24,000 nt of DNA, from the NCBI RefSeq assembly GCF_020524035.2, contig NZ_CP129013.1, positions 1,143,822 through 1,167,821 on the forward strand. The letters are read 5' to 3'. Shown one piece after another: positions 19,860-20,514 of the stretch. How positions within the stretch are numbered: position 1 is the stretch's first letter; every line of letters starts with the position of its first letter. The DNA comes from Bacillus carboniphilus. Lineage in GTDB: Bacteria; Bacillota; Bacilli; Bacillales; JAIVKR01. The translations under genes were made by a program, and so were the position numbers. Under the pieces are notes generated by a model. That model searched no databases, had not been told where the DNA came from, and saw nothing but the letters and a program-made list of their open reading frames with translations.

Positions 19860-19893
19860 AAAGTCCACCTCTTTATGTTCTGTTCCTCTTATA

Positions 19894-20047
19894 GTGCGGT
19901 TTAAAAAGTAGGGAAAAAAGGACGCTGAAGAACGAGGCGGTGTAGCTTTGAGCACTCACAGTGTACGTTCTTGGTACATGAGGAGCGGAAAAGCAAACCA
20001 ACAAAGTTATTCAGCCGACATTTTTTTAGGACTTTTTAAACAACCTC
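19894..20047. mobile_element. MITE-like element, 154-bp copy inserted in the 3' end of dfrA
   Basis: Perfect TTATA duplication (19889-19893 and 20048-20052). Left module GTGCGGTTTAAAAAGTAGGGAAAAAAGGACGCTGAA. The 67-nt right module differs at 3 positions from the copy at 23699-23765. Confidence 0.85.
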
Positions 20048-20514
20048 TTATATACTAAAAACTGATGATTGTATAAATTACGCTCATCTACAACCCCTTT
20101 TTCAGAGGAAACTAATGTCCATTCATTTTCATTAATTGGTGGAAAGTATGAATCTCCTTCAAAGGTAGCGTTAATTTTCGTTATATATAATTTATCTGCA
20201 AAGGGGAGCATCTCTTTATAAACTTGCGACCCACCAATAACAAATATTTCTTCATCATTAATCTTCTCTAGTTCATCTAAAGCATGAATGACTTCACAAC
20301 CTTCTGCTTGAAAGGATGAATTTCTCGTAATCACAATATTTTTTCGTCCAGGCAACGGTTTACCTATAGATTGGAATGTCTTACGTCCCATCACCACTAT
20401 ATGATTCATTGTCACTTTTTTGAAATATTTTAGATCATTCGGTAAATACCAAGGTAACCCATTGTCTTTCCCTATTAAACGGTTCTCATCCATAGCCAGT
20501 ATTAATGATATCAT
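20026..20514 (-). CDS. dfrA: dihydrofolate reductase
   Basis: 162 aa with the DHFR signature ([33 protein letters not shown]). Its start overlaps the thyA stop (ATGA). The last seven codons and the stop lie inside the MITE at 19894-20047. Confidence 0.93.

Follow-up and report, generated by a model that had tools for sequence, protein, structure and literature searches.

For the ERIC/IRU repeats of Enterobacteria and the Correia/NEMIS repeats of Neisseria, both of them transposable elements of the miniature inverted-repeat type (MITEs), effects at the RNA level have been shown, among them sites for RNase III or RNase E and promoters. Closer in host to the locus treated here are bcr1, bcr2 and bcr3, whose original descriptions are reportedly those of Okstad 2004, Klevan 2007 and Kristoffersen 2011, and the Bacillaceae-1 RNA motif (RF01690), which is said to go back to Weinberg 2010. 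In three papers, bcr1–bcr3 are presented as the group A repeats of the B. cereus group, MITE-like sequences with many copies at non-conserved sites and no known transposase (PMC3184786, PMC6542083, PMC3446304). Bacillaceae-1 has been treated as a free-standing, high-copy small RNA (sRNA) of unknown function and uncertain strand, the reverse complement of which was proposed to bind CsrA (PMC4333381). Here, we analyze a 24,000-nucleotide stretch of the Bacillus carboniphilus genome (contig NZ_CP129013.1, positions 1,143,822 to 1,167,821, forward strand; henceforth the window), in which a 154-bp palindromic element, termed copy C, sits at the 3′ end of dfrA, the dihydrofolate reductase (DHFR) gene that follows thyA and precedes an acyltransferase gene.

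Copy C very probably (about 0.9) represents a non-autonomous DNA transposon, i.e., a MITE with the form of a palindrome of about 155 bp, that inserted at the 3′ end of dfrA. The element occupies positions 19894–20047 on the plus strand, starts with GTGCGGTTTAAAAAG, ends with CTTTTTAAACAACCTC and has the canonical ~155-bp form of its family. It is bracketed by a perfect TTATA direct repeat at 19889–19893 and 20048–20052 (strand not assigned), which is the second commonest target-site duplication of the family (6 of 41); on the coding strand, the right-hand copy supplies the TAT and the AA of AAG that form the Tyr and Lys codons of DHFR. A sequence-only reading of the window had proposed a MITE insertion with precisely these borders, and all of its coordinates were confirmed when the sequence was read again. 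The borders were also set independently of the duplication, by alignment with copies elsewhere, and a 5-nt identity at the local base composition (35% GC) has a chance probability of about 0.0015. The site C|TTATA|T is a typical target of the family. Both ends carry imperfect terminal inverted repeats of about 38 nt, which emerged from an inverted-repeat search, from alignment of left against right and as the base of a hairpin: the left arm, GTGCGGTTTAAAAAGTAGGGAAAAAAGGACGCTGAAGA, spans 19894–19931 (+), and the right arm, with the reverse complement GAGGTTGTTTAAAAAGTCCTAAAAAAATGTCGGCTGAA, spans 20010–20047 (+) and encodes RLFKKS plus a stop on the minus strand. A TGTT(C/T)AAAAAGT core is common to the two. 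At 154 bp the element lies well within the MITE size range of less than about 500 bp and has no coding capacity, its sole open reading frame (ORF) being a read-through of 43 aa with its end in the tail of dfrA that was stranded.

Imperfect terminal repeats, the lack of coding capacity and the 5-bp duplication are joined by the presence of several copies in the window, and on these grounds the proposed MITE insertion stands. At least four complete copies (A–D) were found, all on the plus strand and at a density of about one per 5 kb. They differ in interior and length, have a GTGC(A/G)TGTTCAAAAAGTAGGGAAAAAAGGACGCTGAA left end and a (T/G)AGGACTTTTTGAACAACCTC right end in common, and are each flanked by a 5-bp duplication: TTATA/TTAAA with one mismatch for copy A (207 bp, 12765–12971), TAGAA/TAGAA for copy B (119 bp, 14291–14409) and TACAA/TACAA for copy D (310 bp, 23456–23765), the 3′ 68 nt of which are 96% identical to copy C. 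Copy C alone among them touches a coding region. Copy B passes at its right end, through the TAGAA duplication, directly into AGGAATTTTGAAATG (14410–14430), so that TAGAA belongs to the ribosome-binding region of a small ORF that follows. A solo right end of the family, on the minus strand at 8727–8744 and reading GAGGTTGTTTAAAAAGTC on the plus strand, lies upstream of ftsW (7447–8619, minus), as does a second, weaker end-like sequence at 8692–8709 in the same orientation, 35 nt away and with neither body nor partner end; the two may be remnants of a deleted copy.

The sequence-only reading had treated the element as a purely local feature, a view that has to be given up: copy C belongs to a family spread across Bacillales, with an interior more conserved than that of a typical MITE. 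A scan of one genome per species (596 Gb) with the right-end 18-mer GACTTTTTRAACAAMCTC returned at least 120 loci, in a search space where about 69 chance matches are expected. Roughly 15 of the loci among the matches listed lie outside Bacillales (Polaromonas, Nostoc, Nitrospira and others); they come without a left end and fit the chance expectation. The remaining matches listed come from Paenibacillus, Cohnella, Brevibacillus, Fontibacillus, Oceanobacillus, Lentibacillus, Terrilactibacillus, Terrihalobacillus, Radiobacillus, Gracilibacillus, Virgibacillus, Aquibacillus, Fredinandcohnia, Priestia abyssalis, Pseudalkalibacillus and Neobacillus, and more than 15 genera are represented among the matches listed. 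Together with the four copies and the solo end in the window, these loci amount to dispersed copies at non-orthologous sites. The termini GTGCGTGTTCAAAAAG...CTTTTTGAACAACCTC bound elements of 34–399 bp in Paenibacillus, Oceanobacillus, Lentibacillus, Terrilactibacillus and other genera; in the complete Paenibacillus genome NZ_CP196836, three copies are already evident. When a two-ended copy was defined by a left end matching GTGCGTGTTCAAAAAG with at most three mismatches, 34–399 nt upstream of a right end, 79 such copies were present among the matches listed.

The flanks of these copies carry the clearest mark of transposition. The 5-nt flanks were identical in 41 of the 79 two-ended copies listed and differed by one mismatch in a further 23, compared with no perfect and 14 one-mismatch pairs among 553 control flanks shifted outward by 6–12 nt. 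A duplication of fixed length thus recurs at independent insertions. Among the 41 perfect duplications, TATAA (9), TTATA (6), TTAAA (5) and TTTAA (4) were the most frequent and the others were similar; C occupied position −1 at 25 of these sites and G position +1 at 21. From the duplications and the flanking C and G together, the target therefore reads C|TWWWA|G. We read these duplication statistics as the signature of cut-and-stagger transposition, and at the dfrA locus they stand in for the missing empty site.

At dfrA, the insertion would have rewritten the end of the gene while probably leaving it functional. The present gene (20026–20514, minus; Pfam PF00186) encodes a 162-aa DHFR with 100% identity to P0001, the DHFR of B. 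carboniphilus. As proposed from the sequence, the new tail and stop are donated by the element: everything from the G of the Lys codon through RLFKKS to the TAA (20026–20028) is the reverse complement of its right end. The residues that are actually new are the last five (LFKKS) plus the TAA. The preceding Arg codon AGG is derived from the element and identical to the ancestral codon; Lys-Arg is unchanged because the element end and the displaced sequence both begin with GAGG. The element plus one duplication measures 159 bp, or 53 codons, so that the insertion is in frame, and translation through it, past two internal stops, returns to ...HYKRNRT and a stop. The tail of the ancestor, YKRNRT, has therefore survived along with its TAA: a putative ancestral stop at 19873–19875 (minus), located by removing the element and one duplication, comes directly after the stranded codons AAG AGG AAC AGA ACA (KRNRT). 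The same excision, as had been suggested, restores ...YKRNRT with a TAA that abuts the Shine-Dalgarno site of the acyltransferase, the exact ancestral sequence following from the logic of the duplication. We infer an empty junction reading ...TATAAGAGGAACAGAACATAAAGAGGTGG and an empty allele that, across 19800–20100, would be 159 bp shorter and read GTATATAAGAGGAACAGAACATAAAGAGGTGG.

Downstream, the acyltransferase keeps its own start signals. This lysophospholipid (PlsC-family) acyltransferase (19128–19859, minus; Pfam PF01553) has 243 residues, starts at a TTG (19857–19859) and is 100% identical to NCBI protein P0121; its Shine-Dalgarno site AGAGGTGG (19865–19872, minus) abuts the putative ancestral TAA and lies 5 nt (ACTTT) before the TTG. 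The stop-to-start distance would have grown from 13 nt in the ancestor to the 166 nt observed today, in agreement with the initial estimate. A longer, 275-aa ORF with a GVG start (19128–19955) exceeds the TTG-start protein by 32 codons. The suspicion that this extension is spurious proved right: NCBI records the 243-aa TTG form and homologues have 240–245 aa, and the long ORF thus arises artefactually, from reading on into the element. A comparison of DHFR C-termini, which had been proposed as a check, shows that the proteins of relatives end one to six residues after VY(E/K)(R/K). Both NRT and LFKKS would thus fall in a dispensable tail; with the core up to ...VY(E/K)(R/K) untouched, the enzyme is probably unaffected.

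The course of events may be pictured as follows. A transposase acting in trans presumably cut C|TTATA with a 5-bp stagger, at a point where five codons of dfrA were still to come, and TTATA would have been duplicated when the staggered cut was repaired. The tail of DHFR would have changed from NRT to LFKKS, with the new stop supplied by the element, and the old stop on the ribosome-binding site of the acyltransferase would have come to lie 166 nt after the new one, behind a hairpin in the mRNA sense. In the process, dfrA and the acyltransferase probably ceased to be translationally coupled, leaving the latter with its own Shine-Dalgarno site and TTG. As an event, an insertion of this type is real and ordinary, a standard case of a MITE entering the 3′ end of a gene.

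Several observations weigh against this account, above all those concerning the empty site. A DHFR search for an orthologous empty site found the nearest other DHFR to be only 62–65% identical and the protein to form a single-member cluster, an exact look-up in the assembly index showed no entry for the DHFR protein, and a metagenome scan with a 29-mer from the dfrA 3′ end, common to the empty and occupied alleles, gave 0 matches. No autonomous element was recovered either: the window contains no transposase, no gene lies between end pairs 0.7–7.5 kb apart in the at least 120 loci, and none stands beside the plasmid copies in two plasmid contexts. The flanks of copy C also match beyond TTATA, over 9 bp (CCTCTTATA, 19885–19893 and 20044–20052). 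The CCTC of the right-hand match is the conserved element end (AACCTC), and the C beside the left TTATA agrees with the family preference for C at position −1 (25 of 41 sites), a preference that explains the extra 4-nt identity only in part. Finally, dfrA and the acyltransferase form separate transcription units in two relatives, and their co-transcription in B. carboniphilus is an assumption. The MITE insertion is strongly supported by what is seen of the family, rather than by an orthologous empty site.

Gene order around dfrA in relatives gives an uneven picture of the junction. Among three relatives picked by DHFR similarity, the gene after dfrA is not the acyltransferase, which makes them uninformative; three others, picked through the acyltransferase, keep the order thyA–dfrA–acyltransferase, and none of them has the element at the junction. 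The two genes overlap by 4 nt in B. rubiinfantis, whereas B. salacetis and Rossellomorea aquimaris have spacers of 462 nt and 118 nt, respectively, with a terminator behind dfrA and what appears to be a separate promoter. Given the overlap in the first, a tight, coupled ancestral junction in B. carboniphilus appears plausible, and given the terminator spacers in the other two, not universal. Inside the 462-nt spacer of B. salacetis (locus L125, 2280–2395), a GC-rich palindromic block, ggaaggtgcttgatctcctgcgggagcagcgtgacaggtgagaccccgcagg..., stands amid AT-rich sequence and has the look of another repeat, unlike the present one, that was inserted at the corresponding junction. Upstream, thyA (thymidylate synthase, 20511–21314, minus) overlaps the start of dfrA with its stop by 4 nt, and the same overlap occurs in relatives L122, L124, L125 and L126.

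The family falls into length classes, of about 154–157 bp in genera of Bacillaceae and 178–180 bp in Paenibacillus, with minimal forms of 34–68 bp that are little more than the two ends and longest forms of 399 bp. Copy C aligns end to end with 154–157-bp copies from seven genera (Lentibacillus, Terrilactibacillus, Terrihalobacillus, Fredinandcohnia, Gracilibacillus, Oceanobacillus and Priestia). An alignment of 11 sequences (A1) supports a single hairpin over the whole length, with 44 pairs, 18 of which show compensatory double changes, and copy C by itself is predicted to fold with −40.6 kcal/mol (z = −4.5) in the sense of the mRNA and with −45.2 kcal/mol in that of the opposite strand. Within the ~38-nt repeats, conservation across genera lies in the outer 16 nt and not in the inner TAAG-like part; the inner halves vary by lineage, yet left and right co-vary. 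A6 and T7 tracts flank the inner stem of copy C, with a 5-nt spacer between stem and U-run, and no intrinsic terminator was called in 19000–21600. In Paenibacillus oryzae (locus L114, ~1049–1440, reverse strand), at least three copies of a 179-nt Paenibacillus-type element are arranged head to tail with a period of 185 nt and the same spacer TCTAAAATGAAA between copies.

An 11-mer, GGACTTTTTGA, at 19861–19871 (minus), in the stretch of Shine-Dalgarno end, spacer and TTG of the acyltransferase, matches the core of the right MITE end exactly and lies 20 nt from where the element inserted. The idea that the 5′ arm of the element sequesters the acyltransferase start through this 11-mer was not borne out: when 231 nt were folded, the element paired with itself, and the structure was overall no better than those of shuffles. 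The shared sequence is probably due to chance in a T-rich region; it could also reflect a preference for end-like targets or an older remnant.

Longer members of the family repeatedly contain Bacillaceae-1. Copy D has a match to this motif at 23627–23694 (42.7 bits), and copy C has none, even at E values up to 5. In 18 loci from other Bacillaceae genera, 18 matches reached the Bacillaceae-1 gathering score, 17 of which lay between or beside family termini, a proportion that is biased upward by the choice of these loci for carrying the MITE. The modules occur in either orientation and sometimes as inverted pairs; matches distant from the copy by which a locus had been retrieved are included. 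Family members with Bacillaceae-1 were found at loci L005, L009, L021, L030, L038, L050, L069, L077, L084, L097 and L116, and longer copies in Oceanobacillus, Terrihalobacillus, Virgibacillus and Terrilactibacillus hold one or two modules between the MITE ends. The orphan “sRNA” may accordingly be cargo of a MITE, and frequent residence in such an element would be a simple explanation of both its copy number and its strand ambiguity. The window also holds three tandem Bacillaceae-1 units at 10869–11128 (25, 56.6 and 44.6 bits), downstream of a 151-aa ORF (10375–10830) and with no recognizable MITE termini around them. A further motif, AAGAAAAGCG.AAG...CC.TTTA.C..., is present three times (10835–10866, 19016–19047 and 22283–22314; 81% identity); a terminator-like hairpin then follows the copies at 19016 and 22283, and the motif may belong to a different small repeat family.

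We looked for the family in known collections. Copy C matched none of 72,556 plasmids and none of 50,697 phage records, the latter searched with a phage origin in mind; plasmid matches to the family termini came from Paenibacillus plasmids only, with none from Bacillus. In Rfam 15, no family covers the element backbone, either in the window or in 18 Paenibacillus loci. The terminal 14-mers are absent from the literature text searched, general searches for MITEs in Bacillales found nothing specific and no name for the family, and the text of a 2024 MITE survey of 183,232 genomes contains no discussion of Bacillales families. This is a widespread family under structural constraint, apparently undescribed and unnamed. 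Going one step further, with confidence slightly short of even, we suggest that copy C belongs to an undescribed Bacillales MITE superfamily, characterized by near-invariant 16-nt termini GTGCGTGTTCAAAAAG...CTTTTTGAACAACCTC, a C|TWWWA|G target with 5-bp duplication, a modular interior that keeps the hairpin, and longer forms that carry Bacillaceae-1 in either orientation.

Among the other explanations of copy C, mobilization by a Tn3-family transposase, which would make it a Tn3-derived miniature element (TIME), fares best and is still improbable. It would account for the AT-rich 5-bp duplication, which TIMEs share, and for inverted repeats of about 38 nt, and the inner left repeat of B. carboniphilus, GGAAAAAAGGACGCTGAAG, resembles the Tn4430 repeat GGAAAAAAACCACGCTAAG, the latter verified in 527 plasmids. 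Yet the outer GGGG of Tn3-family ends is absent from the GTGCG and GAGGT ends seen here, and conservation across genera concerns the outer 16 nt rather than the inner, TAAG-like part. In 18 repeat comparisons with Tn4430, Tn3 and Tn1546, evaluated with shuffles, the best p value of about 0.015 was lost on correction for multiple testing. A Tn3/TIME origin was therefore rejected: the repeats do not follow the 38-bp GGGG...TAAG pattern, with inner ends GAAG or GAAT, and the similarity is not significant. The ends beginning with GAG and the palindromic T...A duplication recall the IS5/IS1031/IS427 lineage, which we regard as a lead and not as a result.

Very unlikely is the notion that copy C is a bcr1-type repeat of the B. 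cereus group that arrived by the TTTAT-linked, site-specific-like mechanism proposed for bcr1–3. Size (~155 bp in both), 5-bp flanking repeats, location in untranslated regions (UTRs) and operons, and a structure kept by compensatory changes are points in common with bcr1 as presented in its literature (PMC3184786, PMC3446304). What separates the two is target and distribution: PMC6542083 reports bcr1 from the B. cereus group only and ties it to TTTAT, whereas the targets here are TWWWA, TTATA in the case of copy C, and TTTAT does not occur among the 41 perfect duplications. B. cereus-group genomes are absent among the matches listed from the at least 120 loci. The same paper gives bcr1 plasmid copies, against which stand the lack of any plasmid match to copy C and the restriction of the family termini to plasmids of Paenibacillus.

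Even less probable, and already close to refutation, is a leader or intergenic RNA, conserved and cis-regulatory, in the dfrA–acyltransferase operon, next to which the TTATA repeat would be coincidental. The stable hairpin with its compensatory changes across genera, and the position of the element inside a probable transcript, are what such an RNA would lead one to expect. The same element, however, occurs at unrelated loci in the window and in many genera, each time with a different 5-bp duplication; no Rfam family matches copy C; and the stranded, in-frame YKRNRT tail with its stop is the leftover expected of an insertion. The three relatives with thyA–dfrA–acyltransferase synteny, moreover, lack the element at the junction. 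Least probable of all is an assembly artefact that misplaced a repeat copy in dfrA, for which one may cite the frameshifted neighboring DegV (17209–18061) and HlyIII (18366–19014) genes as possible signs of indel errors, but such errors do not make a 154-bp element with a perfect local target duplication, copy C differs from all the other copies in the window and possesses a central hairpin of its own, and its flanks join into a sensible gene end. As to these neighbors themselves, the DegV family gene is split into two overlapping ORFs at ~17627–17649 and the HlyIII family gene at ~18754–18767, and the splits represent either real pseudogenes or indel errors of the assembly.

With the MITE insertion as the preferred account, the dfrA locus offers a case in which a mobile element rewrites a C-terminus, donates a stop and probably uncouples two linked genes while killing neither. 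The element accounts for a 32-codon ORF extension by which gene callers could be misled, and recognition of the family would improve the annotation of intergenic regions in Bacillales. The main value of the analysis lies less in the dfrA event than in the family and its link to Bacillaceae-1, a high-copy orphan that is thereby given a mobile-DNA context. The defined target, C|TWWWA|G with a 5-bp stagger, provides a handle for finding the responsible transposase. If the superfamily suggestion is true, Bacillaceae-1 would be the cargo of a mobile element and not a free-standing regulatory RNA gene, and one transposase would be common to Bacillaceae and Paenibacillaceae.

Copy C and its relatives may be set against described systems. 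With bcr1–3 they share a length of about 155 bp, 5-bp flanking direct repeats, sites in UTRs and operons, compensatory changes and the lack of an identified transposase. According to its published description, bcr1 uses a fixed TTTAT and is reported only from the B. cereus group, whereas the present family uses variable TWWWA targets in both Bacillaceae and Paenibacillaceae; the structure depicted for bcr1 is a cruciform of two stem-loops, and the present element folds as one whole-length hairpin. Compared indirectly, through plasmid searches with copy C and the family termini, the two showed no detectable similarity. TIMEs likewise combine a 5-bp duplication with inverted repeats of about 38 nt but differ in their GGGG outer end. 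Unlike the free-standing sRNA of the cited work, Bacillaceae-1 often resides here inside longer MITE members, copy C being a member without the module. ERIC/IRU and Correia elements are palindromic MITEs of ~100–160 bp in transcribed regions too, and their long mRNA hairpins can alter processing and the expression of neighbors; they duplicate TA and are unrelated in sequence and host, whereas the present family duplicates 5 bp. The Rickettsia palindromic elements (RPEs) offer a parallel to the event at dfrA, in that a palindromic mobile element sits inside a protein-coding gene without destroying it. RPEs are translated in frame as an extra peptide, whereas copy C, although also inserted in frame, carries stops, replaces a five-residue tail and ends the protein.

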